The notes under the pieces are model-generated. The model saw only the letters and a list, made by a program, of their open reading frames with translations, searched no databases and was not told the DNA's origin. A program made the translations under genes and the position numbers. Positions 2,017 to 28,371 of a stretch of 31,228 nucleotides of DNA are shown here, in pieces; the stretch's first letter is position 1; the number at the start of each line of letters is the position of its first letter. This stretch comes from a virus. Its lineage: Duplodnaviria; Caudoviricetes. The stretch covers positions 1 to 31,228 of IMG/VR virus record IMGVR_UViG_3300037461_000157; one strand, given 5' to 3'.

Positions 2017-3845
2017 TCGATCGCTTCCGTTCCATCTTCATTCCGCCCGCCCATCCCTACGTCGACAACTACCTCCCGTTCGTGAGCTTCAACGGGAACA
2101 CCTATCCGCTCGGCGGCCTGACCCAGACGCTGCAGGGCAACGTGGAGCCGATCGCCTCGGACTTCGCCGGGCTGGTGCAGGGCGCCTACCAGCGGAACGG
2201 GATCGTGTTCGCCTGCATGCTGGCCCGCCGCTCGCTGTTCTCGGAAGCGCGCTTCATGTTCCGCCAGCGCCGGAGCGGCACGCCGGGCGAGCTGTTCAGC
2301 CTGCCGAGCCTCGACATCCTGACCACGCCCTGGGCCAACGGCACGACCGGCGATCTCCTGTCGCGCGCCATCCAGGACGTTGACCTCGCCGGTAACGCCT
2401 TCTTCCTGCGCCGCGGCGCCCGGATCATCCGCCTGCGGCCGGATTGGGTCGTCATCGTTCACGGGTCATTCAACGATCCCGACGTGGGCATGTGGGACCC
2501 GGAGGCCGAGTTGCTCGGCTACGGCTACCAGCCGGGCGGGCCCGCCAGCGGCCGCACCCCGATCTTCTACCAGGCGTCCGAGGTCGCCCACTTCGCGCCC
2601 GAGAAAGACCCGCTCGCCCCGGACCGCGGCATCTCGTGGCTGACGCCGATCCTCCGCGAGATCGAAGGCGACTCGGCCATGACCGACCACAAGCGGGCGT
2701 TCCTGGCCAACGGGGCGACCGTGAACCTCGTCGTCACCGGCGTGCCCTCGGCCTCCAAGGAACAGTTCAAGGAGTGGGTCGATACGTTCGAAGGTAAGCA
2801 CCGCGGCATCGCGAACGCGTACAAGTCGCTCTACCTCTCGCCCACGATGGACGCCAAGGCCGTGGGCTCCGACATGGCGCAGCTCGACTTCAAGGTGGTG
2901 CAGGGCGCAGGCGAAACGAGGATCGCCGCGGCTGCCGGCGTGCCCGCTGCCGTGGTCGGCATCTCCGAGGGGCTGCAGGGATCGTCGCTGAACGCCGGCA
3001 ACTTCGGTGCCGCGATGCGGCGCTTCGCGGACATGACCATGCGCCCGCTGTGGCGCGACGTGTGCGGGTCGCTCTCGACGATCGTCCCGCCCCCGCCAGC
3101 CTCCGAGCTCTGGTATGACGATCGGGACGTGCCGGCGTTGAAGGATGACGTGAAGTCGGCTGCCGAAGTCCAGCAGCTCCAGGCACAGGCCGTCCACCAG
3201 TACGTCGTCGCCGGCTTCGATCCGGCCTCCGTCGTGGATGCCGTGAAGTCCGGCGACCTCTCGCGCCTGACCCACACCGGCCTCTACTCCGTCCAGCTCC
3301 AGCCGCCGATGCCCGAGGGCCAGCCCGAGCCCGAAGCGCCCGAGCCGGAGCCCGAGCCGGAGGACGCCGCCCCGGCCCGCGAACAGCTCTTGCTCTTGGC
3401 CCGGACAGCCGAGGCGCACGAGCGCCGGGCTGACGCGGCCGAGCGGATGGCCGAGCGCGAGCCTCCGGCCCCCGTGGTCAACGTCACCACGCCCGAAGTC
3501 ACGGTGCATCCGGCCGATGTGAACGTGACGATCGAACGGGGCGCCGTGGAGGCCCCGATCACGATCGAGCCTGCGGTGGTGAACGTCACGACGCCGGAGG
3601 TCCGCAACGAGATCACCGTCGAGCCGTCCCCGGTCGAGATTACCGTCGAGCCGTCCCCGGTCGAGGTCCGCAACGAGGTAACGGTGGAGCCGACGCCGCT
3701 AGAGGTCCACAACGAAGTCAACGTCGAGCCCACGCCCGTGACGATTACCAACGAGATCCCCGAGCCGCGGACCGTGACGAAGCGCGTCATCCGCGACGCC
3801 AAGAACCAGATCACCGAGATCGTGGAGGAGCCGACCGATGGCTAG
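2007..3845 (+). CDS. Portal protein (HK97 family) with long Pro/Val/Glu-rich C-terminal extension
   Basis: GNAF..., RLRPDWV, RGISWL, IAAAAGVP..VG motifs typical of HK97 portals; position after terL; alternative start 2013 (ATGA overlap). Confidence 0.93.
   Translation: MGMIDRFRSIFIPPAHPYVDNYLPFVSFNGNTYPLGGLTQTLQGNVEPIASDFAGLVQGAYQRNGIVFACMLARRSLFSEARFMFRQRRSGTPGELFSLPSLDILTTPWANGTTGDLLSRAIQDVDLAGNAFFLRRGARIIRLRPDWVVIVHGSFNDPDVGMWDPEAELLGYGYQPGGPASGRTPIFYQASEVAHFAPEKDPLAPDRGISWLTPILREIEGDSAMTDHKRAFLANGATVNLVVTGVPSASKEQFKEWVDTFEGKHRGIANAYKSLYLSPTMDAKAVGSDMAQLDFKVVQGAGETRIAAAAGVPAAVVGISEGLQGSSLNAGNFGAAMRRFADMTMRPLWRDVCGSLSTIVPPPPASELWYDDRDVPALKDDVKSAAEVQQLQAQAVHQYVVAGFDPASVVDAVKSGDLSRLTHTGLYSVQLQPPMPEGQPEPEAPEPEPEPEDAAPAREQLLLLARTAEAHERRADAAERMAEREPPAPVVNVTTPEVTVHPADVNVTIERGAVEAPITIEPAVVNVTTPEVRNEITVEPSPVEITVEPSPVEVRNEVTVEPTPLEVHNEVNVEPTPVTITNEIPEPRTVTKRVIRDAKNQITEIVEEPTDG
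3608..3665 (+). repeat. 27-bp tandem repeat (EITVEPSPV x2) inside the portal extension
   Basis: CGAGATCACCGTCGAGCCGTCCCCGGT at 3608-3634 and CGAGATTACCGTCGAGCCGTCCCCGGT at 3635-3661 (1 mismatch); degenerate copies flank it. Confidence 0.9.
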
Positions 3846-18080: not shown

Positions 18081-18116
18081 TTGACAATGTATAACGCCCC
18101 GCGTAGGCTTCGGGCA
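18081..18116 (+). promoter_or_regulatory. Sigma70/SigA-type promoter, leaderless transcript
   Basis: TTGACA(18081)-17 bp-TAGGCT(18104-18109)-6 bp-ATG(18116); no SD sequence. Confidence 0.85.
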
Positions 18117-18552: not shown

Positions 18553-19317
18553 ATGGCACGCACCATCAAGGCACCCGTAGCGGTCGGCCTCTGCCGGGAC
18601 GAGTACCACCGCTACTTCTGGAACGGGGAGGGGCCGCTCGTCTCCCCGACGACCGTCGCGAAGGTCATCTACTCGTACCCGCTGGAGCGCTGGAAGCTCG
18701 AAGGCGTCGCCCGTCGAGCGATCCGCGACCACGACCTCATCACCGTCCTGCGCGAGCGCGGCGACGAAGAGGCAGCGATCCGGCTCCTGCTCGACTCCAA
18801 GGATGAGTCGACGGCAGCCCGTGACCGCGGCACCGCCTTCCATGCCTGGGCCGAAGTGGTCAACCGCGACGAGCCGGCCATCGCGCCCGAGGGGCTCGAG
18901 GGAGAGGTCTTCGGCTACCTCCGCTGGCGGGATGCCGCGAAGCCCGAATGGCTGGCCGTCGAGTCGCTGGTGGCGAGCCTCAAGTACCGCTATGGCGGAA
19001 CCCTCGACGGTATCTGCCGGCTCGACGGCCAAGTCTGGCTGATCGACGTGAAGACCTCCAAGAGCGTCGCCGACAAGAACGGCGCGGTCTGGAAGGACTA
19101 CCGCCTCCAGCTCTCGGCCTACGCGAACGCCGAGTTCATCGGGCGCCCCAACGATCCCAAGAAGTACCGCATCCCTCCGATCGAGCGCTTCGGGATCGTC
19201 CATGTCACCGCGTCGGAGACGCGGCTGGTGGAGGCGCGGGTGACGCGCTCCGACTGGCTCGCCTTCCTCCAGGCGCTTGCCCTCCAGCGATGGATGAAAG
19301 AGGAGACCGCCGCGTGA
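18553..19317 (+). CDS. PD-(D/E)XK exonuclease (RecE/Cas4-like recombination nuclease)
   Basis: HRY, SPTT, ARDRGTAFH, YGGTLDG...LIDVKTSK, LQLSAYANA. Confidence 0.88.
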   Translation: MARTIKAPVAVGLCRDEYHRYFWNGEGPLVSPTTVAKVIYSYPLERWKLEGVARRAIRDHDLITVLRERGDEEAAIRLLLDSKDESTAARDRGTAFHAWAEVVNRDEPAIAPEGLEGEVFGYLRWRDAAKPEWLAVESLVASLKYRYGGTLDGICRLDGQVWLIDVKTSKSVADKNGAVWKDYRLQLSAYANAEFIGRPNDPKKYRIPPIERFGIVHVTASETRLVEARVTRSDWLAFLQALALQRWMKEETAA

Positions 19318-19628
19318 GCCTGACCTGCCCGTACTGTCACCAGCCCTTCACCCTCTTCGCGGTGTCGATCCCGGCGGCAGCCGCCGCGACCACCGTGCCC
19401 GAGCCGACCCCCACGACGCCGTGGCTCTGCCCGGTCCATCGCACCTCCAAGATCGTGCCGGCGGGAACCTCGCGGGCCACCGGCAAGACCTATACGGCCT
19501 TCTGGGCGTGCACCGAGCGCGACTGCCAGCAGCGCCCGCCCCGCGGCTACCCGGTGCCGCTCGGCGCCCCGGCGTCCGTCGCCCCTGAGCCGTTCCCCGA
19601 GACGAGCGGGCTGGAAGAGCTGATCTGA
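19314..19628 (+). CDS. Zinc-ribbon protein (recombination-associated)
   Basis: GTGA overlap and AGGAG RBS; CPYC, CPVH...AGTSRATGKTY.AFWAC...C. Confidence 0.7.
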   Translation: MSLTCPYCHQPFTLFAVSIPAAAAATTVPEPTPTTPWLCPVHRTSKIVPAGTSRATGKTYTAFWACTERDCQQRPPRGYPVPLGAPASVAPEPFPETSGLEELI

Positions 19629-19864
19629 TGAAGCCCTCCACCCGCCAAGTGCTCGCACTCCTGCGTGAGCAGGGCGTCGACGGCGTGACCCCGGCGCTCG
19701 CCCTGTCCGAAGTCGGCACCATGCGGCTCGCCGCCCGGATCGCCGAGCTGCGGGCCGAGGGCCACGACATCGTCAACGTCGGCTGGACGACGCCGACGGG
19801 CAAGCACGTCGCCCGGTACGTCCTCCGTGAGCGCCAGCAGTTGACGCTCGGAGTGGCGTCGTGA
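19628..19864 (+). CDS. Winged-helix DNA-binding protein (HTH_39-like)
   Basis: T...AL...G.MRLAARIAELR.EG..I...W...GKHVARY. Confidence 0.8.
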   Translation: MKPSTRQVLALLREQGVDGVTPALALSEVGTMRLAARIAELRAEGHDIVNVGWTTPTGKHVARYVLRERQQLTLGVAS

Positions 19865-20178
19865 GCCGCCTTGCGCGCTTCTGGTACCTCGTCGGCCATA
19901 CGCCAGTCGGCACCGATGACGTGGCCGTCTGGTCAGACAACCTGGAGCCGATCGAAGCACGCCGCGTCGGCAACACGCAGATCGGCGACGTGAGCGTATC
20001 GACCGTGTTCCTCGGCGTTGACCACGAGTTCTACGGCGGCCCGCCGCTCCTGTTCGAGACGATGATCTTCGGCGGCCCGCAGGACGAGTTCTGCGAGCGG
20101 TACTCGACGTGGGAAGAGGCCGAGGCCGGGCACGCCCGCATCGTCGCCGCCGTTGAGGCGGGAGAGGTGGCGTCGTGA
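19861..20178 (+). CDS. Conserved phage hypothetical protein
   Basis: VSTVFLG.DH...GPPLLFETMIFGG...RYSTWEEA.AGH, a motif I recognise from phage hypotheticals. Confidence 0.75.
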   Translation: MSRLARFWYLVGHTPVGTDDVAVWSDNLEPIEARRVGNTQIGDVSVSTVFLGVDHEFYGGPPLLFETMIFGGPQDEFCERYSTWEEAEAGHARIVAAVEAGEVAS

Positions 20179-20342
20179 CCACGCCCCTGCGCCCGTGCGG
20201 CCGGGAGCGGTGCCGACTCTGCAACCCCCGGCCCATCCACGACGAGCCGCGAGACACCCTGCCGATGCTGCTGCTCTCGGCGGCCATGCTCGTCCTGCTC
20301 GGCATCTTCGCGTTCGTCCTGCTGCCGGTACTCGTCCTGTGA
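20175..20342 (+). CDS. Small membrane protein (55 aa; not in the ORF track)
   Basis: GTGA overlaps at both ends; MTTPLRPCGRERCRLC...[25 protein letters not shown]. Confidence 0.65.
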   Translation: MTTPLRPCGRERCRLCNPRPIHDEPRDTLPMLLLSAAMLVLLGIFAFVLLPVLVL

Positions 20343-20680
20343 AGCCGGCCTGCATGACTGTCGACGAGTGGGCCATCTGGACTGAAGCCAACGACAAGCT
20401 CTGGGGCGTCCTGCGTTCCGAGTCGCCCTGCCGGGACTGCACGCCGCTCTTCCACCGCGACATGGTGGCGGGCGGCATGTGCGACGGCGTGCCCCTGCCA
20501 GGCGAGCGGCTGTCGGCCAAGGCGGGGCCGAAGTTTCAGTACCACGAGCACACCTACGCCGAGCTGAAAGAGATGCGGGCGGCATACAGCCGCTTCGGCG
20601 CGCCGCCGTCGCTGCTCGTCGAGATCCGGCGGGCGTACTTCCGCGAGCGCGACAGGGATCGCCGGCGGGTGACGGCATGA
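20339..20680 (+). CDS. Cys-motif hypothetical protein (possible metal or Fe-S binding)
   Basis: GTG start overlapping the upstream stop; PACM...PCRDC...GMCDG. Confidence 0.6.
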
Positions 20681-21603
20681 GCAAGTTGAGTCTCGGGGTG
20701 GAGAAGGCCGCGGCTCGTCACGAACTTATCGCCCGCCCAGACGTAGCCATCGGAACCGTGATTGACCTTCGCATCCCTGACAGCATCCCCGTCCTGACGG
20801 GCGTGCTCGACAGCCTCGGCGGCGCGATCGCCAAGGGCGGCTGGTGGACGGCCGCCGCGGTGTACGCGTGGACGGAGCCGCAGCAGGGCAAGCGAACGGA
20901 CCTCGTCGGGATTCCGACGAAGTTGAGCCTCTCCGACTTCGCTGACTTGCGCGTTCGCGGACTCCGCGGCCGCGAGGAAGTGGGCAAGTACCGCGGCAAG
21001 TGGGAGCGGGCAATCGAGTTGGGATGGGCGCGCCCAGTCGCCCCCGGAGACGACGTTGGGCTTCCTGAGCAGGACTTCGACGACCCGGAGCTTGACCCCG
21101 GCGGCATGGCCCACGTCGGGCAGAACAGCGGCGAGAACGAGTGGTACACGCCCGCCGCCTACATCGCGGCGGCCCGCGCCGTCATGGGCGGCATCGACCT
21201 CGACCCGGCGTCCACGCTCGTCGCCAACGAAGTCGTCGGAGCGACGGCCATCTTCACGGCGGAAGACAACGGGCTGGAACAGCCGTGGCGGGGCTGCGTA
21301 TGGATGAACCCGCCATACGCCCAGCCGCTCGTCGGCCAGTTCACATCGAAGCTCGTCGAGGAGTTCACCCACGGCAACGTCGAGCAGGCGTGCGTTCTGG
21401 TGAACAACGCGACCGAGACGGGCTGGTTCCAGCCGGTCGCTCTCATCGCCTCGGCCATCTGCTTCCCGGCTGGGCGCGTGAAGTTCTGGCACCCGGAACG
21501 CGAGTCCGCGCCGCTGCAAGGGCAGGCCGTCCTATATCTCGGCGCGGCCGTCGAGTCCTTCCACGCCGAGTTCAGCGGCTTCGGATTCACGGTGACGAGA
21601 TGA
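20677..21603 (+). CDS. DNA N6-adenine methyltransferase (phage Dam-like) with N-terminal extension
   Basis: NEWYTP, IDLDPAS, DNGL, WMNPPY, NNATET.WFQ, GRVKF. Confidence 0.92.
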
Positions 21604-22073
21604 CAAGTTCGCGGCTTCAGAAGCGCCCGACGTGTGGGCAGCACTGGCCCGACGACGACGAGCACGCGACTCGCGCGTTCGGCTGGGTGGATCCCCTGCC
21701 ACGGAAGATCACCGTGAGCAACATCGACGGCATCATCCATGACGGCGCGACGGGGATCGACCGCTTCCTTGTCCTAGAGTCGAAGCACCTGAGCGAGCCC
21801 GTCAAGCCCGGCCAACTGCGGCTGCTGAAGGCGCTGGCCGCCGTCCCCAACTTCGCTGTCCGCATCCTGCGGGGCACGCCCGAGATGATGGTGAAGGAGA
21901 CGGTGACGCCCGAGGGTGTCTTCGGCGCCGAGTCCATGACCGCTGCTGCTGCCCGAGCGGGCATCGTCCGCTGGATCGACCCCGCGTATCCCGTTGAGGT
22001 TCGCACCAGCGTCGCCCCGTCCGCGGGCCGGTTCGATCCCTTCGACGAGCTGGACGTGGATTGGCCAGCATGA
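21600..22073 (+). CDS. Putative PD-(D/E)XK nuclease
   Basis: SNIDG...FLVLESK...GQLRLLKAL; ATGA-coupled. Confidence 0.6.
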
Positions 22074-22627
22074 GCCGCGAGGACGGCTTCGACGTGGCCG
22101 ACGTGGCGACCGGCCACCTGGACGACCCCAAAGTCAAGGCGCTCTGGCGGGCTGTGGCGCCCGACCAGGACCGCATGAGCCGCGCCCTGACGCTGCACCT
22201 GTCCGTCCTGCTCGCCTCGTGGCGGCAGGGTGCCCGCGTCACCGTCGCCGAAGCCGTGCCCGTGTGGCTCGACCCGGACGCGGAGCTGGTGGCGACGTTG
22301 CAGGCCGTCGGCCTGCTCGACAGGACCGGGAAGTTGCCGACGCGCTCATGGAAGGGCTGGTTTGGGCCGGCGTGGGAGCGCCGGGAAGCCCGCCGGGAGG
22401 CTGGACGGCTCGGCGGCATGCGCTCCGGGACGGCTCGGCGAAGCAATGCTGAAGCACCGCTTGAAGCCATGCGAAGCAATGCTGAACCCGACCGGCCGAC
22501 AGGCCGGTCCGTCCGTACCGTCCGACAGGACCGTCCGTCGCGCGAGAACGTGCCGTCAAACGGCACGAAGAGCGACGGAATGACGGCCGTCCGCGAGACG
22601 GTGGCGGCGCTGGGGCTGGCGAAGTGA
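22070..22627 (+). CDS. Putative replication initiator
   Basis: DDPKV N-terminus, R..RREAGRLGG motif, and internal iteron-like DNA repeats as in lambda O-type initiators. Confidence 0.65.
   Translation: MSREDGFDVADVATGHLDDPKVKALWRAVAPDQDRMSRALTLHLSVLLASWRQGARVTVAEAVPVWLDPDAELVATLQAVGLLDRTGKLPTRSWKGWFGPAWERREARREAGRLGGMRSGTARRSNAEAPLEAMRSNAEPDRPTGRSVRTVRQDRPSRENVPSNGTKSDGMTAVRETVAALGLAK
22438..22540 (+). repeat. Iteron-like repeats, putative replication origin
   Basis: GCGAAGCAATGCTGAA at 22438 and 22471; GAAGC at 22440, 22451, 22463, 22473 (10-12 bp period); followed by CCGT(C/A) repeats. Confidence 0.7.
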
Positions 22628-23244
22628 CCGACCTAGACCGCCTCCCGTTCCATGACGGCCACGAGTCCCCGCCCACGCCCAACGGCGCGAAGGGCGCGAA
22701 GCCCTGCAAGCACCACCACCTCCTGCGCCGTTTCGTCGTCACGGACTTCGCGACGCACCCCGTCACGGGCTACAGCGAGTGCGGTCGGTGTCATGCGCGG
22801 CTCGACCCTACGGCCGCTCGCCGTGGCCGCAGTTCGGACCGGCTCGGGAAGGACCAGGAACGGCGGATCGAACGGGTCTACGGCCCCCGGAAGGTGGGCG
22901 AGTACGGCGATGCCGTCGACCATCTCGGCCAGGACTTCAAGTGGCAGGCGAAGGCCACCCGGAAGGAACCGCCGAAGTGGCTGGCCGCGATCACCGAACC
23001 GACGTGGCTGGCGATCGTGCCGAAGTCCGTCCTCGACCCGATGGCCCACATGAGTGGGATCGGCGGGATGCGCCGGCCGCTGGTGATCCGATCCTACGTC
23101 CACCAGGGGGTGCCGACCCGCGACTGGCTGTTCCTGATCTGGCACGACTGGTACCGCCTTCATGGCGGCGACCCGCATGGCTACGGCTACATCGTCATGC
23201 CGGGCTCGGCGTTCCTCGAGCTCCACGGGCCGGACGCGGCATGA
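22624..23244 (+). CDS. Putative Holliday-junction resolvase-like PD-(D/E)XK protein with N-terminal Zn motif
   Basis: RGR...GKDQERRI, VD, WQAK motifs; CxH...CxxC. Confidence 0.55.
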   Translation: MTDLDRLPFHDGHESPPTPNGAKGAKPCKHHHLLRRFVVTDFATHPVTGYSECGRCHARLDPTAARRGRSSDRLGKDQERRIERVYGPRKVGEYGDAVDHLGQDFKWQAKATRKEPPKWLAAITEPTWLAIVPKSVLDPMAHMSGIGGMRRPLVIRSYVHQGVPTRDWLFLIWHDWYRLHGGDPHGYGYIVMPGSAFLELHGPDAA

Positions 23245-23966
23245 CCCGCCCGGTCCTGCTCGACCTGTTCTGCGGTGCCGGTGGAGCCGCAGTCGGCTAC
23301 CACCGTGCAGGCTTCGACGTGATCGGCGTGGACATCAGGCCGCAGCCGCACTACCCGTTTGAGTTCATCCAGGCGGACTGGGAGGAACCCCTCTGGACCC
23401 TGCCCGGATTGTGGGAACGCGAGGGTCGGCCCTACGCCATCCACGCCTCACCGCCATGCCAGGCGTACTCGACCATGACGAAGCGTTGGGCGCGATCCGA
23501 CGAACACCCCGATCTTATCGGCCCGGTGCGCGAGCACCTAGAGGCCATCGAAGCGCCGTTCGTGATTGAGAACGTCGTCGGGGCGCCGCTGGTCGACGCC
23601 ACGATGCTCTGCGGCTCGATGTTCGGACTCGGGGCTGAGGGCTTCCAGCTTCGGCGGCATCGCCTGTTTGAGCCGCACGGCTTCGACCTCTGGCCGCCGG
23701 CCGGCTGCAATCACGAGGGCCAGGCGCTCCCGGTCTATGGGCACCCCGGCGGGTCGTCGAAGCGCGACGGGCTAAAGTTCCCCGGCACGTCGGCATGGAG
23801 GGCCGGCATGGGCATCGACTGGATGACCACGCCGGAACTCACCGAGAGCATCCCGCCAGCGTTCACGGAATGGGTCGGCGCGCCCCTGCTCCGGGCCGCT
23901 CAGGACGCGATCGGTGTCCTGTTCGCCGGAACCGTCGGGGACTTCCTCGACGAGCTGGGCGCATGA
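23241..23966 (+). CDS. DNA C5-cytosine methyltransferase
   Basis: LDLFCGAGG, ASPPCQ, VIENV, RRHRLFE, ESIPPAFTEWVG. Confidence 0.92.
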   Translation: MTRPVLLDLFCGAGGAAVGYHRAGFDVIGVDIRPQPHYPFEFIQADWEEPLWTLPGLWEREGRPYAIHASPPCQAYSTMTKRWARSDEHPDLIGPVREHLEAIEAPFVIENVVGAPLVDATMLCGSMFGLGAEGFQLRRHRLFEPHGFDLWPPAGCNHEGQALPVYGHPGGSSKRDGLKFPGTSAWRAGMGIDWMTTPELTESIPPAFTEWVGAPLLRAAQDAIGVLFAGTVGDFLDELGA

Positions 23967-24142
23967 CGACGCCCCGGACGCCCCAGCGACTCGGCGCGGT
24001 AGCGCTCGACCTCGCCCGGCGTGACGACCCACGTCTTCCCGACGAGCGTGGCGCGCAGCCGTCCGTTGCGGACCTGAGAACGCAGAGTGGCGGGCGACAC
24101 CCCGAGGGATGCGCCCGCCTGAGCGAGTGTGATCTCGCGCAT
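23900..24142 (-). CDS. HTH_17 (MerR/excisionase-like) DNA-binding protein
   Basis: ITLAQAGASLGVSPATLRSQVRNGRLRATLVGKTWVVT..EVERY; GRPGRR tail. Confidence 0.85.
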   Translation of the reverse strand: MREITLAQAGASLGVSPATLRSQVRNGRLRATLVGKTWVVTPGEVERYRAESLGRPGRRHAPSSSRKSPTVPANRTPIAS

Positions 24143-24352
24143 CGGTCAGAAGCCCCGCACCATCCGGCGGGTCGTCTCCTGGTTCTCGCGCATCGTCCGG
24201 TCCTGGAGGGCTCGGTACTCAGCGGCGGCCTTGCGGTCGGCATCGGCTGCGGCGCGCATTCGGGCTTCCGTCGTGGTCGGGGTCTGCTCGGTGGTCTTCA
24301 TGCCAGCAATCTACACGGTAGCGCGCAGTTTGTCAAGTGGGCAATCGCATGA
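23963..24352 (+). CDS. Possible filler ORF antisense to the leftward cassette (129 aa)
   Basis: Starts by ATGA overlap with the methylase stop and ends by ATGA overlap with the next + gene; protein looks like a shadow translation. Confidence 0.35.
   Translation: MTTPRTPQRLGAVALDLARRDDPRLPDERGAQPSVADLRTQSGGRHPEGCARLSECDLAHRSEAPHHPAGRLLVLAHRPVLEGSVLSGGLAVGIGCGAHSGFRRGRGLLGGLHASNLHGSAQFVKWAIA
24146..24301 (-). CDS. Small helical protein (51 aa, MKTTEQTPTTTEARMRAAADADRKAAAEYRALQDRTMRENQETTRRMVRGF; not in the ORF track)
   Basis: Leaderless ATG 6 nt after a -10 box; GC3-biased codons; stop 3 nt before the HTH_17 start. Confidence 0.75.
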   Translation of the reverse strand: MKTTEQTPTTTEARMRAAADADRKAAAEYRALQDRTMRENQETTRRMVRGF

Positions 24353-24723
24353 CCGCCCTCGTCGCCGCGGCCATGCTCGCCGACCTCCTCACCTTCGCCG
24401 CCGTCATCGAAACCGTCGGCATCGGCGCCGAGCAGAACCCCGTCATGGCGAGCGGCTACACCCAGGGCGGCATCGTCGCCGTCGCCGCCCTCAAGCTCAC
24501 CGCCCTCGCCGCCATCGTCCTGCTCGTCGCCCGCGTCCGCCGTCCCCGGCTGCGCGTCCTCGCGGCGGGCATCGCCATCGTCGTCGGCGTGACGGGCGCC
24601 GCGAGCAACGTCACCGCCTGGGCGCAGACGTCGGGACAGGGCAACCCGGCAGCGGGCGGAGCAGGTGCGGCGGTCGCTGCGGGACCGGCCGAGGTCGATC
24701 CCGCAGTTGACGCATCGGCTCAT
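24298..24723 (-). CDS. C4 zinc-finger protein with C-terminal tail antisense to a membrane-protein gene
   Basis: CVNCG...RSDRRTCSARCRVALSRR; ATG directly follows the upstream TAG; stop overlaps the ATG at 24301. Confidence 0.65.
   Translation of the reverse strand: MSRCVNCGIDLGRSRSDRRTCSARCRVALSRRLRPGGDVARGARHADDDGDARREDAQPGTADAGDEQDDGGEGGELEGGDGDDAALGVAARHDGVLLGADADGFDDGGEGEEVGEHGRGDEGGHAIAHLTNCALPCRLLA
24301..24336 (-). promoter_or_regulatory. Leftward sigma70-type promoter, leaderless transcript
   Basis: Minus strand TTGACA(24336-24331)-17 bp-TAGATT(24313-24308)-6 bp-ATG(24301). Confidence 0.85.
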
Positions 24724-25758
24724 CTACTCGCCCTCGGGGACCGGACCCCACTGCTCCAGCCATTTGCCGGTGCGGCGGTAGTAGCGGAGGCGGACAGCGT
24801 CGTTGCGAGCCTGCCGCCGGTCCTCTCGAGCCGCGGACCACTCGGGATGGGCCTTGTCGGCGGCCGTCCAGAGCCGCAGGGCGCGGGCGCGAGCGGCCTT
24901 CCTGGTCGAGTGCTCGACGACGCGGACCGGCTTCCACTGCGTGACCTTGGCCGTGCCGGACCGGGCGCCTGGGCCGTAGGGCTGGTAGATGCCGCTCGCG
25001 TACTTGCCTTCGGCGAGCGTCTCGGTTGTCCAGAAGAACATCGCGCCGTCTGGCGACTGCCAGTAGCGGTAGCGCGGTTGGCGAGCGGGCGTGAACAGGG
25101 CACGGAGTGTCGGGTCGCTGTTGACGAAGCTCGCGAGGTCCTCTTGGAACGATGCCATGGCGTCTCCCTTCTGTTGCGGTTGTCTACACTAAGCGTAACA
25201 CCACTGTCAAATCTACATGCAAGTCTGCACCGGTCGTCGGCGGCAGCTTCGACTCCCCGAGCTGCGCTGGAGAGCATCCCGGCTGTCTCCCGGCCGGTTG
25301 GGCAGGTCACCCTCGATGATCCAGCGCAGCTCGGGCAGCCGGACCAAGCGAAAGCGGTCATCCCGGCGCCCGACGACCGGCCCAAGGGTCCCGGTCGGAT
25401 CACACCACCTCGGCCGGCGATCGGGATACGGCCCGCGCCGACCGAGGAGCCCCGCACCGCGCTAGTCCTGCGGGGCATCGCTTCCTTCGTCGGCCCCGGC
25501 TACGGGCCGCGCTACCTCGCCCTGCCGGACGGCCCCGGCGTCACCGTGTACATCTGCGGCCCCGTGGCGTGCGTGGTGCGGACCTCGACCGACGCCGGAC
25601 CCGACCTCGCCATGCAGCGTGCCGGCCGCGTGGCCGACCTGTCGTTCGCGGACTTCCGGCGAGTCTGCGGCTGTGACCCGTGGGCCGTGGGGCTGGTCCG
25701 CGTCACCGTCGCGCCCATCCCCGCCCCGCCCGTGACCAGCACGAAGGAGACGCCATGA
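24349..25758 (+). CDS. Membrane protein (DUF5658-like, 3 TM) joined in frame to a C-terminal RlpA-like double-psi beta-barrel
   Basis: N-terminal ADLLT...AEQNPVM...LK and three hydrophobic helices; C-terminal G.AS...ALP.G.G..V.IC...TDAGP...RVADLS..DF...GLVRV; ~280-aa linker between them. Confidence 0.6.
   Translation: MTALVAAAMLADLLTFAAVIETVGIGAEQNPVMASGYTQGGIVAVAALKLTALAAIVLLVARVRRPRLRVLAAGIAIVVGVTGAASNVTAWAQTSGQGNPAAGGAGAAVAAGPAEVDPAVDASAHLLALGDRTPLLQPFAGAAVVAEADSVVASLPPVLSSRGPLGMGLVGGRPEPQGAGASGLPGRVLDDADRLPLRDLGRAGPGAWAVGLVDAARVLAFGERLGCPEEHRAVWRLPVAVARLASGREQGTECRVAVDEAREVLLERCHGVSLLLRLSTLSVTPLSNLHASLHRSSAAASTPRAALESIPAVSRPVGQVTLDDPAQLGQPDQAKAVIPAPDDRPKGPGRITPPRPAIGIRPAPTEEPRTALVLRGIASFVGPGYGPRYLALPDGPGVTVYICGPVACVVRTSTDAGPDLAMQRAGRVADLSFADFRRVCGCDPWAVGLVRVTVAPIPAPPVTSTKETP
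24724..25158 (-). CDS. Hypothetical protein (144 aa), first gene of the leftward unit
   Basis: GAAGGGAG RBS; aromatic-rich, natural-looking sequence; GC3-biased codons on the minus strand. Confidence 0.8.
   Translation of the reverse strand: MASFQEDLASFVNSDPTLRALFTPARQPRYRYWQSPDGAMFFWTTETLAEGKYASGIYQPYGPGARSGTAKVTQWKPVRVVEHSTRKAARARALRLWTAADKAHPEWSAAREDRRQARNDAVRLRYYRRTGKWLEQWGPVPEGE
25181..25210 (-). promoter_or_regulatory. Probable leftward promoter
   Basis: TTGACA(25210-25205)-18 bp-TAGACA in an AT-rich island; shares GTGTAGA with the 24336 promoter; imperfect -10. Confidence 0.55.
25230..25380 (+). ncRNA. Unclassified structured RNA element (multi-way junction)
   Basis: Nested perfect inverted repeats 25230-25240/25370-25380 (11 bp) and 25256-25271/25320-25335 (16 bp), plus a GC-GAAA-GC capped hairpin 25338-25367. 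Confidence 0.6.
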
Positions 25759-25847
25759 CCGACTTTGCCAAGGGGATGCTCGCAGGAGGCGCCGCGGTGG
25801 CGATCGGCGCGGTAATGGCAACCCTTCTCGCGCTGGTGCTCCGATGA
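25755..25847 (+). CDS. 30-aa single-TM protein (MTDFAKGMLAGGAAVAIGAVMATLLALVLR)
   Basis: AAGGAG RBS; ATGA overlaps at both ends. Confidence 0.65.
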   Translation: MTDFAKGMLAGGAAVAIGAVMATLLALVLR

Positions 25848-26047
25848 CCGACAACGGCATCGCCCCGATCCACGACCGGCGCGACGAGGAGCCGATCCGT
25901 CGTTGGGAAGATCGCTGCGACTTCATCGCGCCAACCGGGACCATCGCCCCGGACCTCATCTGTGATAGGCCACGCGGCCATGCGGGGATGCACACGGGCA
26001 GACTGGTGCGGGACCGGCGCGTCGTGGGCTACGGGAGGCTCCGATGA
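25844..26047 (+). CDS. Small Cys/His motif protein
   Basis: C...C.RPRGHAGMH motif; ATGA-coupled. Confidence 0.6.
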   Translation: MTDNGIAPIHDRRDEEPIRRWEDRCDFIAPTGTIAPDLICDRPRGHAGMHTGRLVRDRRVVGYGRLR

Positions 26048-26391
26048 GCGACGACAACGGATTGTCGGCGCTGGCTGCGGCGCTGCACCGCGAGTGGTTG
26101 CTGCGCCCTCACCGCCTCCCCGAAGCCGCCGCCATCCTCGGTGAGCGCGGGGTGTTTCTGCCAAATGGGCTGCGGAGCGTCGAGATCTACAACCATTGGG
26201 CGGTCCAACTGGACGACCAAGCCGCCACCATCGCCACCCTCCGCGCCGCGCTGGACGGGCTGGTGGAGGCGGCTGAGGCATACATCACGGCGCTGGATGC
26301 GGACCTATACCGACCGGGAACGCCCGAAGACTGGTGGAACCGGGAGGCAGCCCTAGCCGCCCTCCGCGCCGCGCTGGAGGCTGAACGATGA
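26044..26391 (+). CDS. Hypothetical coiled-coil protein
   Basis: GGGAGG RBS; ATGA-coupled; IATLRAAL repeats. Confidence 0.65.
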   Translation: MSDDNGLSALAAALHREWLLRPHRLPEAAAILGERGVFLPNGLRSVEIYNHWAVQLDDQAATIATLRAALDGLVEAAEAYITALDADLYRPGTPEDWWNREAALAALRAALEAER

Positions 26392-26696
26392 CTGGATCGT
26401 GTATTCACGGCATCCCGTGGGACGCTGGCTGCACGCTCTGTGGCCGGAACACCCTACCGGGGGTCAACCTCTACAACACGACTTGCGTCCACGGCCTCGA
26501 CCTTCGGCTGGTGCCGCGCTGCTACCTCTGCAAGCCCGAACTCGACTTGTCGGCTGTCGTCTCGGGGACGGACTACACCGATCTCCTGCTCCTGATCGCA
26601 GAGTGCCTCGTGGTACTCGCATGGAGGGCAGAACCGGATGCCGGGGCGCGTCAGTCGCGGCTGCACGCGATCCGTGCCGCGAAGGAGACGCCATGA
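26388..26696 (+). CDS. Hypothetical protein with two CxHG..CxxC motifs
   Basis: GGAGG RBS; CIHG...CTLC and CVHG...CYLC. Confidence 0.65.
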   Translation: MTGSCIHGIPWDAGCTLCGRNTLPGVNLYNTTCVHGLDLRLVPRCYLCKPELDLSAVVSGTDYTDLLLLIAECLVVLAWRAEPDAGARQSRLHAIRAAKETP

Positions 26697-26818
26697 CCCG
26701 CCTCGACCGTTGCCGGATCGGGAAGCACATCTGGCAGCCGTGGACCCGGACGGACGGCACCGAGAGCGGCTGGTGGTGGTGCTTCCGTTGCCATGCCACG
26801 AGCGAGGGGACGCCATGA
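26693..26818 (+). CDS. 41-aa zinc-finger-like protein
   Basis: AAGGAG RBS; C..GKHIW...CFRC; ATGA overlaps at both ends. Confidence 0.65.
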   Translation: MTRLDRCRIGKHIWQPWTRTDGTESGWWWCFRCHATSEGTP

Positions 26819-27096
26819 CCCGCCTCGCCCTCTCATGGCTCGGCGCCCTCGTCGTCATCGCCTGGGCCGTGGCGACGGCATGGGCCTTCATCCATGCCGC
26901 GATGCGCCGGGATGACGATGTTCCGACCTACCGCGAGCCGGAGGATGGCGTGCAGCCGTGGGACCCCGAGACGATCCGGCGCATGACGTTCGGCGGCGGA
27001 TCGGCCACGATCGTCAGCGACAACCTGACGACCTCCGACGCGGCCGATGCGACGCTCTGGTTCGACTGGCGCGCGGAGCGGGCCCAACTGACGTGA
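26815..27096 (+). CDS. Membrane-anchored hypothetical protein
   Basis: N-terminal hydrophobic helix; ATGA-coupled. Confidence 0.65.
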   Translation: MTRLALSWLGALVVIAWAVATAWAFIHAAMRRDDDVPTYREPEDGVQPWDPETIRRMTFGGGSATIVSDNLTTSDAADATLWFDWRAERAQLT

Positions 27097-27512
27097 CCGA
27101 CGACCCCGCGGTCCTCACGCCGCTGGAGGTCGGCCGCATCCTGCGCGTCTCGGACGTGACCGTGCGCCGGATGATCACCCGCGGCGTCCTGCCGCGCATC
27201 GCCGGGGTCCGGGTCGTGCTCATCCCGCGCCGCGCCGTCGACCGCCTTCTTTTGGGAGAGTACGATTGGCAATCCGATGAGCCGAGAGAAAGGCACCGGG
27301 ACGATCGTCCCGACGAAGACGCCGGCCGGGGCGGATCGCTGGCGGATCGCCGTGACGATGGCGGACGGCCGGCGAGTCTGGCGGACTGCGAAGAGCCCGA
27401 AGGAAGCCGAGCGCATCCGCAAGGCGCTCGTCGACGCCCGCGAGCTCGACCTCGACCCCACGCGGCAGACCCTCGCGGACTACCTCCGGTCATGGATCGG
27501 GAGCCTGCGTGA
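27093..27512 (+). CDS. xis: Excisionase / recombination directionality factor (HTH_17)
   Basis: GTG start; VLTPLEVGRILRVSDVTVRRMITRGVLP...VLIPRRAVDRLL; immediately upstream of int; frame runs 236 nt into int. Confidence 0.75.
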   Translation: MTDDPAVLTPLEVGRILRVSDVTVRRMITRGVLPRIAGVRVVLIPRRAVDRLLLGEYDWQSDEPRERHRDDRPDEDAGRGGSLADRRDDGGRPASLADCEEPEGSRAHPQGARRRPRARPRPHAADPRGLPPVMDREPA

Positions 27513-28371
27513 TGGCCGTCGCGTCCGTCCCCGGACGGTGGAGTCCTACGCGATGATCGTCGAGCGGCACATCGTCCCGGCGCTCGGCGGATACAAGCTC
27601 GCCGCTATCACCCCGCGCCGCATCCAGGGCTGGATCGACGCGCATCCCGGCGCCCCGCGCACCGTCCTGCTCCACCATGCCGTCCTGCGTCGCGCCCTCG
27701 GAGTGGCCGTCCGCCAGCGGCTCTTGCCGTGGAACCCGGCGATGGCCGTCGACCTCCCCCGCCCGCGCACCGACGTGGCCCGGCCCCTGACGCTCGAGGA
27801 AGCCCACCGACTGCTCACCGCCACCAGCGGCGACCGGTTGCACGCGCTCTGGCGGCTGGCGATCGTCACCGGCCTGCGGGAGAGCGAGCTGCTCGGCCTC
27901 GCGTGGGACGACGTGGGCGGCGCGACGATCACGGTCGGCCACCAGCTCCAGCGCATCGGTCGGGCGTGGGCCCGCGTCGCGCCCAAGGCGGCTCGCACCC
28001 TGACCCGCGTGGCGCTCGACCCCGCTACAAGCATGGTTCTCGAGGCTCATCGCCTGCGGATGGCCGGGGAGCGGACGCCTGAGTGGACGTACTTCGGCCT
28101 GGTCTTCGTCACCGAGCGCGGGCAGCCGTTCCACCGGCCCATGATCCTGCGCGAGTTCCACGCGGCCTGCGACGCGGCCGGGATCGAGCGGCGACGGTTT
28201 CACGACATCCGACACAGCACGGCGCACCTGATGAACGACCTCGGCGTGGACGAGAAGACGCGGATGGCCCGGCTCGGCCACTCGACGGTGAGCATGAGCC
28301 GCCACTACAGCGGCGCCAGCGAGGCGCAGGACCGGCTGGCGGTGGAGAGGTTGGGGGAGGCGCTGGGATGA
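27277..28371 (+). CDS. int: Tyrosine integrase
   Basis: TGLRESELLGL (R), FHDIRH (HxxR), RLGH, SRHY (Y); SAM-like N-terminal domain. Confidence 0.96.
   Translation: MSREKGTGTIVPTKTPAGADRWRIAVTMADGRRVWRTAKSPKEAERIRKALVDARELDLDPTRQTLADYLRSWIGSLRDGRRVRPRTVESYAMIVERHIVPALGGYKLAAITPRRIQGWIDAHPGAPRTVLLHHAVLRRALGVAVRQRLLPWNPAMAVDLPRPRTDVARPLTLEEAHRLLTATSGDRLHALWRLAIVTGLRESELLGLAWDDVGGATITVGHQLQRIGRAWARVAPKAARTLTRVALDPATSMVLEAHRLRMAGERTPEWTYFGLVFVTERGQPFHRPMILREFHAACDAAGIERRRFHDIRHSTAHLMNDLGVDEKTRMARLGHSTVSMSRHYSGASEAQDRLAVERLGEALG

Follow-up and report, generated by a model that had tools for sequence, protein, structure and literature searches.

The window analysed here, 31,228 nucleotides of temperate phage DNA rich in GC, carries two small mini-operons (cassettes A and B) that run backward through a coupled operon, and across each of them the operon strand keeps a reading frame free of stops. 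Judging from the sequence, this frame likely (with a probability of roughly 0.7) lets ribosomes pass the cassettes and then reach the coding sequence downstream. Both cassettes are insertions, bridges of like geometry are found again at unrelated sites, and the filler drifts while its frame stays open. The best reading of these features is that selection acts for ribosome traffic and not for a protein.

The Phage Operon and Its Empty Sites

The host of the phage is probably a member of the Chloroflexota. Both cassettes lie in a plus-strand operon whose genes, between 19314 and 27096, are chained without a break by stop-start overlaps of the -4/-1 type. Its relevant parts are as follows.

18081..18110, plus strand: TTGACA early promoter-like site, which heads the operon containing cassettes A and B
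23241..23966, plus strand: C5 DNA methyltransferase (Pfam PF00145, E 7.5e-7), with a stop that overlaps the filler A start
24349..24623, plus strand: DUF5658-like membrane domain, the N-terminus of a native membrane anchor-linker-DPBB gene
25245..25758, plus strand: Pro-rich linker and predicted double-psi beta-barrel (DPBB; RlpA/expansin-like), with a 96% nucleotide match to L013 at 25242-25343
25755..25847, plus strand: next gene of the chain, with an ATGA overlap and its own Shine-Dalgarno (SD) site (-9.3 kcal/mol)

The plus-strand ATGA overlaps lie at 23963, 24349 and 25755. Cassettes A and B are present here and absent at the matching sites in close relatives. In L004, L005 and L012, the methyltransferase and cassette A are both missing, and the upstream gene adjoins the DUF5658-like gene directly, leaving an empty site. 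Contig joints from 23245/6 to 24349/58, found in runs X2-X4, also skip the methyltransferase together with cassette A. The empty site of cassette B is seen in L004 and L012, where the anchor-linker-DPBB gene is present without it.

Cassette A

Cassette A lies between two genes of the operon and is bridged by filler A.

23963..24352, plus strand: filler A, a bridge ORF of 129 codons from ATGA to ATGA, without a family match
23900..24142, minus strand: HTH_17 (excisionase/MerR-like) gene that ends cassette A (Pfam PF12728, 29.6 bits against a cut-off of 27)
24146..24301, minus strand: 51-aa variable gene (ORF)
24308..24336, minus strand: putative promoter P2 (TTGACA, 17 nt, TAGATT), by consensus match

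Filler A lies opposite the HTH gene, the 51-aa gene and promoter P2 in the codon-aligned antisense register, and between 23940 and 24370 the sole stop in its frame is the one at 24350. Both of its overlaps are contained in an 8-bp repeat, found at 23960-23967 and at 24346-24353. The HTH_17 domain spans approximately 24142-23969, and a C-terminal tail extends into the end of the methylase; a 3-nt gap precedes the gene at 24142. The 51-aa gene has no Pfam or PHROG match, and its ATG lies 6 nt past the -10 box, so that it is likely leaderless. The sequence-only reading had this gene coupled to the minus-strand gene before it; the frame relation between the two follows from plus-strand geometry, and the 51-aa gene has its own putative promoter, likely a leaderless one.

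Cassette B

Cassette B interrupts the anchor-linker-DPBB gene itself.

24624..25244, plus strand: filler B, 621 bp or 207 codons, an in-frame insertion relative to cassette-free L012
24616..24723, minus strand: Cys4 zinc-finger-like module of 35 aa that ends cassette B (DUF2116, E 0.006, under the Pfam cut-off)
24298..24615, minus strand: read-through tail of the zinc-finger ORF, a shadow of the DUF5658-like gene and P2
24724..25158, minus strand: SD-led 144-aa gene with 8 homologs (46-72% identity)
25163..25210, minus strand: putative promoter P1 (TTGACA, 18 nt, TAGACA), by consensus match, with an SD

Filler B would be read across cassette B as a linker without conservation. The frame of the long plus-strand ORF has zero stops between 24600 and 25270, and with filler B included this ORF would encode a 469-aa fusion. 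There is no in-frame ATG, GTG or TTG at 25246-25480, and the DPBB part therefore relies on read-through of filler B. Since the next gene at 25755 has its own SD, selection at cassette B may be for the DPBB domain and not for coupling. The SD of the DUF5658-like gene, at the far side of cassette A, is weak (-4.3 kcal/mol).

The domains named in the sequence-only reading fared unequally. HTH_17 was borne out, while DUF5658 (E 1.6e-4) and the zinc finger fall under the Pfam cut-off, and the RlpA region of the window has zero Pfam matches and is tentatively assigned to DPBB by a structural model (pLDDT 80.6). The best PDB matches of this model are expansins and DPBB proteins with TM 0.60-0.66, and its best E against PDB chains is 9e-4 (TM 0.62). 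The counterpart domain in L004 matches DPBB_1 at E 1e-3. The DPBB alignment yielded no solved relative by sequence and was too variable for a locus scan.

The 144-aa gene belongs to a real protein family, and selection in this part of the cassette acts on the minus strand. A viral scan with the protein sequence alone returned zero relatives, a viral scan with the alignment returned one distant locus, and a metagenome scan returned at least 3 loci. A scan with the zinc-finger-like module gave 6 loci, of which L094 and L096 were examined; neither is an antisense insertion, and thus the in-gene type of bridge is known from the window and three partial alleles. In L094, the module also ends a promoter cassette, here sense-oriented. 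The cassette genes in the window matched only HTH_17/excisionase-like and zinc-finger-like families and no transposase or recombinase, a result that does not fit an insertion sequence or transposon.

All eight ORFs first described, with their coordinates and their plus- and minus-strand junctions (the latter including TAG abutting ATG at 24724/24723 and ATGA at 24301), are present in the sequence, as are the TTGACA starts at 25210 and 24336. The unbroken coupled chain claimed for each strand holds on the plus strand; the minus chain is partly shadow and ends at 23900 in the methylase, without a start to couple to. The proposed symmetry between strands finds no support either: the 141-aa 'Zn finger' is the 35-aa module plus a shadow tail. 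This tail mirrors the DUF5658-like gene in codon-aligned antisense, and all relatives of the module have unrelated tails. The equivalent antisense frame is free of stops in L005, L012 and L006, which lack the cassette, and has one stop in L004. A selected minus-strand chain was rejected for this reason. Both cassettes run into host genes at their ends.

Chance in the Window

Taken by itself, the pattern in the window is weak and only modestly beyond chance. Under synonymous resampling in its own register, the filler is open with P 0.40 (A) and 0.20 (B); in random register these values become 0.19 and 0.066, and with an additional length factor of 1/3 they are approximately 0.06 and 0.02, so the shuffling suggested earlier favours the idea only modestly here. 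Of 6045 stop triplets in loci L001-L060, 3204 (53%) share 1, 4 or 8 nt with a start codon, which makes a single stop/start overlap cheap evidence, and it was rejected as such. Openness through the two AT-rich promoters, which had been considered notable, is unsurprising and was likewise discarded, as 21 of 45 control antisense frames across promoter blocks are open. The precise start and stop couplings are real, and the ATGA ends in the window are mostly relics of a duplicated ancestral junction that did not evolve separately.

These base rates also favour an account without any selection, in which GC-rich shadow frames and junction duplication leave bridges as chance survivors from one or two lucky cassettes. 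The codon-aligned antisense frame has a stop rate of just 0.4% per codon, overlapping starts are common as noted, two sense cassettes (L019 and L034) have an opposite frame that is open by chance, and the bridged HTHs cluster on the tree. This account is highly improbable in light of the relatives, where recurrence takes the pattern far beyond chance.

Recurrence Among Relatives

The HTH set comprises 46 related loci, obtained from alignment scans only; flanking genes were called by our codon-score script and by eye. In 21 of these the cassette is antisense between host-strand genes, representing 13 sites besides the window, and at 6 of the 13 sites (14 loci) a single bridge ORF of 152-748 codons overlaps the upstream stop and the downstream start, spanning the entire cassette. 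The null, which assumes a start and a stop at no cost, was taken from 178 kb of these loci where genes run in one direction, and it gives a bridging rate of about 4%. Against it, 6 bridged sites were observed where 0.47 are expected (P 1.5e-6; 1.3 expected and P 5e-4 under a generous null), with the proviso that L021, L046 and L066 have a cassette type in common and the sites are therefore not fully independent. The longest bridges almost never stay open under synonymous resampling: the 567-codon bridge of L024, whose genes lie in differing registers, was open in 0 of 2000 trials, and the 748-codon bridge of L046 in 3 of 2000.

The ParB-methylase/terS (small terminase) junction is bridged by all seven of its different cassettes (166-433 codons), so the frame has been kept by seven different contents at one site; in one of these, L048, the left overlap is of another type. 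A later sample gave 6 of 10 testable loci bridged and 2 partly bridged, and the 2 clear failures were confined to decayed remnants; a probability computed for this sample is disregarded, since it involved hand-set values and related alleles. Descent from one lucky cassette is also contradicted by the tree: although 14 of the 16 bridged HTHs group together in a clade with weak support, a single clade, and with it one origin for every bridge, was rejected by the tree test.

Among the 13 bridged cassettes, 11 have a gene-to-HTH spacing of 0 or +3 nt, which keeps the frame, while frame-shifting -1/-4 overlaps occur in 12 of 12 called other cassettes. A single frame for all genes of a cassette is no requirement for bridging, as the bridges of L024 and L041 span -4 overlaps. 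Promoter spacers of different loci have an imperfect palindrome in common, but the sequences of P1 and P2 are not repeats close to identity.

Drift of the Filler

Alignment of homologous loci, the check first proposed, shows open frames and junctions preserved despite divergent cassettes. Identity is 0.82 for the HTH and 0.57 for the filler. One allele of cassette B differs in 22 codons, 21 of them non-synonymous on the plus strand, with zero stops; in a second allele, 475 nt have been swapped for 352, a net change of -123 that keeps the frame. The core inference of the sequence-only reading, that the fillers are selected to carry ribosomes, is supported by this check: unrelated cassettes at unrelated sites retain the frames and overlaps while amino acids drift.

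It could instead be argued that the fillers are new overlapping protein genes with important products, or that sense and antisense strands make up a switch in which each excludes the other. By their layout the promoters converge, filler B would be part of the 469-aa fusion, and translated antisense genes have been reported in other bacteria (PMC8850804). However, filler sequences of 129-748 codons are unrelated to one another and have no Pfam or PHROG match, and substitutions concentrate at third positions of cassette codons (414 versus 138 and 109 at the other two). Moreover, the minus-strand tail appears to be an unselected shadow, the cassette family also occurs in sense orientation, and no evidence was found for the switch that had been suggested. 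Conserved filler proteins were rejected on the drift described above, and this alternative as a whole is very unlikely.

Coupling, Rho and the Downstream Gene

If bridges deliver ribosomes, the strength of the downstream SD becomes relevant. It is weaker at bridged than at unbridged sites (7 versus 7; one-sided Mann-Whitney p 0.019), a modest contrast with a Fisher p of 0.10. At unbridged cassettes, which make up 7 of the 13 antisense sites, the next gene mostly has its own SD. L028 has a duplicated ATGA junction yet lacks a single bridge, L036 is coupled at its end only, and a sense insertion in L004 breaks the host frame.

An open frame might also be selected to keep ribosomes on the RNA, so that Rho spares 0.4-2.2 kb of otherwise untranslated RNA, with the overlap being a relic of the duplicated junction. 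Rho is over the family cut-off in 3 of 5 cassette-carrying host genomes, with a split match in a fourth; overlap-holding junction repeats of 7-18 bp occur at window A, L015, L041 and L068; and the gene that follows the bridge of L024 has a strong SD (-10.0). Nevertheless, L020 has about 800 unbridged nt within its tail operon, ahead of an SD-led gene. The overlaps of L021, L046 and L066 are exact though no junction repeat was found, other overlap types occur in L048, L104 and L108, and the bridge of L102 stops on an internal in-frame terS GTG. Protection from Rho is thus unlikely to be the main reason for the open frame.

In the preferred reading, that of ribosome traffic, a cassette would use short homology to enter the junction of two genes, and the insertion would often duplicate the stop/start overlap, placing a start at its left and a stop at its right. 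Where the next gene has a weak SD, termination-reinitiation would be maintained only by insertions with a length and register that leave the frame open. Such insertions alone would persist, and gene swaps or point changes that come later would pass through the same filter. Read-through of the opposite strand would let mobile cassettes escape polarity. At filler A, ribosomes would restart on the next gene, and at filler B they would simply continue into the downstream sequence. The bridge polypeptide is likely a by-product, and the cassette's promoter would drive transcription of the cassette strand.

Relation to Known Systems

Inteins, self-splicing introns and engineered non-polar cassettes are insertions that leave host expression intact. 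In contrast to these, the element here involves no splicing and no new SD and would be read through on its non-coding strand. Phage morons, likewise small and mobile, carry a promoter together with small genes that vary, and they move among phage genomes. The PeSL cassettes of T4-type phages resemble the window cassettes in being small and mobile, in the strong sigma70-like promoter, in small genes that vary, and in shuffling between phages; they carry promoter and terminator stem-loops, and their abstract mentions no bridge frame (PMC2839356). Unlike PeSLs and morons, the cassettes described here end in an HTH or zinc-finger gene, are often antisense in coupled operons, and are opposed by a bridge ORF on the host strand.

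Termination-reinitiation pairs have the same -1/-4 stop/start overlaps, and SD dependence at ATGA/TGATG overlaps differs among gene pairs; there the partners are ordinary genes, whereas here the upstream partner is an antisense ORF free in sequence and apparently kept only for ribosome delivery (PMC6728339). A published antisense-ORF study likewise found frames open without amino-acid constraint, and its authors speculate that translation, and not an essential protein, may be what matters. However, those ORFs lie opposite single genes and no mechanism is given (the words 'coupling', 'polar' and 'operon' appear 0 times), while the bridges here run from stop to start across multi-gene insertions. 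No description of such antisense-cassette bridges was found in the open literature searched.

Implications

Bridges would provide a concrete reason for long antisense ORFs that are stop-free yet unconstrained in amino acids, the long-standing shadow-ORF puzzle. They would also mean that translational coupling or polarity is strong enough to decide the survival of insertions in phage genomes. Annotation pipelines will mis-call bridges as genes or fusions, as with the 469-aa and 141-aa 'proteins' here. The broader picture, which we favour with somewhat less assurance than the bridging itself, is that cassettes of Chloroflexota phages colonise coupled junctions, among them that in front of the essential small terminase, and stay silent as introns and inteins do but in a third way, with the non-coding strand forming an open bridge of up to 748 codons selected purely for translation. 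Bridges would then be candidate starting points for de novo overlapping genes and, taken together, a standing nursery of new translated antisense genes.

The window locus and its two cassettes

The window is a single GC-rich contig of 31,228 bp and can be read as a temperate phage because it carries genes for portal, capsid-protease, integrase and methylase. Relatives of the window's HTH gene are found in 17 GTDB records, all bearing the name of a Chloroflexota lineage in their title (Chloroflexota/Chloroflexi, Chloroflexia, Limnocylindrales, Thermomicrobiales), and from these titles we infer a Chloroflexota host. On the plus strand, following a TTGACA site at 18081, -4/-1 stop-start overlaps run without a break through 19314-27096. 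An excisionase-like HTH ORF (27093-27512) enters the integrase ORF (27277-28371) by about 235 nt in a different frame.

Elements of the locus
23900-24142, minus: HTH_17 gene, cassette A
24146-24301, minus: 51-aa gene, cassette A
24336, minus: TTGACA of promoter P2, cassette A
24616-24723, minus: Zn finger, cassette B
24724-25158, minus: 144-aa gene, cassette B
25210, minus: TTGACA of promoter P1, cassette B
23963-24352, plus: filler A, the open frame opposite cassette A
24624-25244, plus: filler B, the open frame opposite cassette B

Every ORF, junction and promoter hexamer claimed in the sequence-only reading is present. Its domain assignments hold with some reservations: HTH_17 scores above its cut-off and DUF5658 below, the Zn finger is a module of 35 aa, and the RlpA assigned to the C-terminal domain of the long ORF has no Pfam match, although a double-psi beta-barrel (DPBB) is predicted there.

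Comparison with close relatives identifies cassettes A and B as two insertions. In related loci L004, L005 and L012, the gene matching 22624-23244 directly overlaps the DUF5658-like start, without methylase, HTH, 51-aa gene or P2, and contigs of the related sets X2-X4 have the identical join. In L004 and L012, membrane domain, Pro-rich linker and C-terminal domain form one gene; relative to L012, the window has a 621-bp in-frame insertion (24624-25244) containing P1, the 144-aa gene and the Zn finger. Both ATGA overlaps of filler A are junction relics, since they lie inside an 8-bp repeat found at both its ends. The cassettes share a layout of promoter, variable small gene(s) and terminal HTH or Zn finger, and both kinds also occur sense-oriented at other loci.

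Several further observations concern these modules. The 144-aa family (window 24724-25158, minus) has a long form of 138-146 aa and a short form of 105-111 aa without the C-terminal third. A sense cassette at 3893-5033 of L004 splits the DUF5658-like gene at codon 15, and the gene is restored downstream by an N-terminus from a different allele; this cassette has an HNH gene and a TTGACA on each strand. Where membrane-anchor segments end, L013 has a short sequence three times (77-89, 1215-1227, 2003-2015), and it recurs at the cassette B junction (24611-24623), which suggests a recombination hot spot for anchor/DPBB module swaps. L024 carries a C5 methylase (2309-3004) like that of the window (23241-23966) inside its antisense cassette; the window counterpart adjoins the cassette on the host strand.

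Taken alone, the window is weak evidence for bridging, because synonymous resampling often enough leaves the frames open (own register: filler A P 0.40, filler B P 0.20; random register and length: about 0.06 and 0.02), overlapping starts are common (3204 of 6045 stop triplets) and so are open frames across promoters (21/45 control antisense frames cross the promoter block without a stop). Most of the proposed minus-strand coupled chain is shadow: the tails of Zn-finger relatives are unrelated, the DUF5658-like antisense frame is already stop-free in 3 of 4 cassette-free relatives checked, and the HTH gene tail terminates within the methylase, where there is no start to couple with. Two-strand symmetry and a mutually exclusive switch between strands are unsupported.

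Bridges in related loci

The idea that fillers are ribosome bridges over antisense cassettes is well supported by comparison of relatives. An HTH alignment search yielded 29 viral and 17 genomic loci. Cassettes lie antisense between two host-strand genes at 21 loci, reduced to 13 sites; the other 25 (sense, divergent or with uncallable flanks) were removed before counting. At 6 of 13 sites (14 loci), a single host-strand ORF crosses all cassette genes and the promoter, overlapping the upstream stop and the downstream start. The bridged sites comprise the ParB-methylase/terminase-small-subunit junction, L016/L017 (167 codons), L021 (289), L024/L025 (567), L041 (152) and L046 (748); L020, L022, L028, L031, L036, L051 and L054 have no bridge. 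At the terminase junction, open frames and overlaps are retained in all seven cassettes despite differing gene content (166, 330, 166, 172, 227, 230 and 433 codons), with 8-nt overlaps on both sides in six and ATGA on the left in L048.

The null model grants start and stop free and asks for an open frame of the right length class (1/3); its rates come from the co-oriented gene runs of these loci, 178 kb in total. For the 13 sites, which are not fully independent, it expects 0.47 bridges against 6 observed (P 1.5e-6), or 1.3 with the best register always granted (P 5e-4). In resampling that shuffled uncalled genes within some cassettes as non-coding, the frame stayed open in 0/2000 trials for L024, 0.15% for L046, 0.25% for L066 and 1.4% for L041. 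A 52-column tree rejects a single clade for the 16 bridged HTHs and requires no fewer than 3 changes along supported branches, yet a single group with weak support contains 14 of them.

Two later searches of 401 genomes each, in overlapping sets, gave ten antisense loci with a testable host-strand junction (interrupted L091 is outside the count). Six are bridged (L064, L066, L068, L102, L104, L108). The methylase-side junction of eight of the ten is that of the earlier terminase site, which leaves L066 and L068 as the new sites. The ORF after the bridge is unrecognised in L064 and cut by the contig end in L068; the L102 bridge ends at an internal in-frame GTG within the terminase gene, and overlaps of other types are seen in L104 and L108. 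The L062 bridge terminates in the promoter, and an ORF of 25 codons carries on to the terminase start; L065 keeps the frame open and has lost the start codon. L078 and L100, without bridges, are decayed remnants (HTH frameshifted or terminase gene truncated).

Other cassette features were also observed. Inside the cassettes of L021 (2718-2970), L046 (2703-2978) and L066 (1200-1439), a host-strand gene precedes a hairpin, and the bridge overlaps this gene in another frame, giving two overlapping host-strand frames. A DnaA-box-like motif lies on the host strand shortly upstream of many cassette promoters: TTATCCACA in L036 (~2725-2733) is a perfect match, and the motif also lies just upstream of the -35 in L021, L041, L010, L066, L038, L045 and L048-L050. 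Promoter -35/-10 spacers are imperfect palindromes of a type common between loci (window 24314-24330 and 25187-25204; L024 2040-2075; L028 2648-2680; L036 2754-2785), possible operators for the cassette's own HTH.

Conservation of the open frame

From sequence comparison, the conserved trait of fillers is openness rather than protein sequence. At the terminase site, HTH differences fall at third, first and second codon positions 414, 138 and 109 times, and identity is 0.82 for the HTH versus 0.57 for the filler. In one cassette B allele with at least 27 differences, those listed affect 22 codons, 21 non-synonymous on the plus strand and 14 synonymous on the minus strand, with no stops; in another, 475 nt are replaced by 352, a net multiple of three. 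Spacing ahead of the HTH gene is frame-keeping in 11/13 bridged cassettes and frame-shifting in 12/12 called unbridged or sense cassettes (3 uncalled), a contrast confounded by lineage.

Known systems and proposed mechanism

Known systems for comparison include morons, inteins, introns and engineered non-polar cassettes. Among titles and abstracts listed in the open literature on this arrangement, its nearest concepts, stop-codon avoidance and the host group, none describes bridge ORFs over antisense insertions. PeSL cassettes (PMC2839356) are among the closest known systems to these cassettes, and antiparallel ORFs without constraint (bioRxiv 10.1101/724807) among the closest to the fillers.

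The main rival holds that the bridge is retained as protection from Rho, which is above cut-off in 3/5 host genomes. In cassette B, the barrel domain lacks its own start and the following gene has its own SD, so retention of the in-frame insertion may serve that domain. For bridging by termination-reinitiation, which PMC6728339 describes at ATGA/TGATG gene pairs, the fit comes from downstream starts, whose predicted SD pairing is weaker where a bridge exists (-3.1 to -6.9 kcal/mol, with one of -10.0) than where none does (5/7 at -10.2 to -15.6 kcal/mol; rank test p 0.019, Fisher p 0.10). On this reading, ribosomes finishing the bridge would reinitiate at the downstream start.
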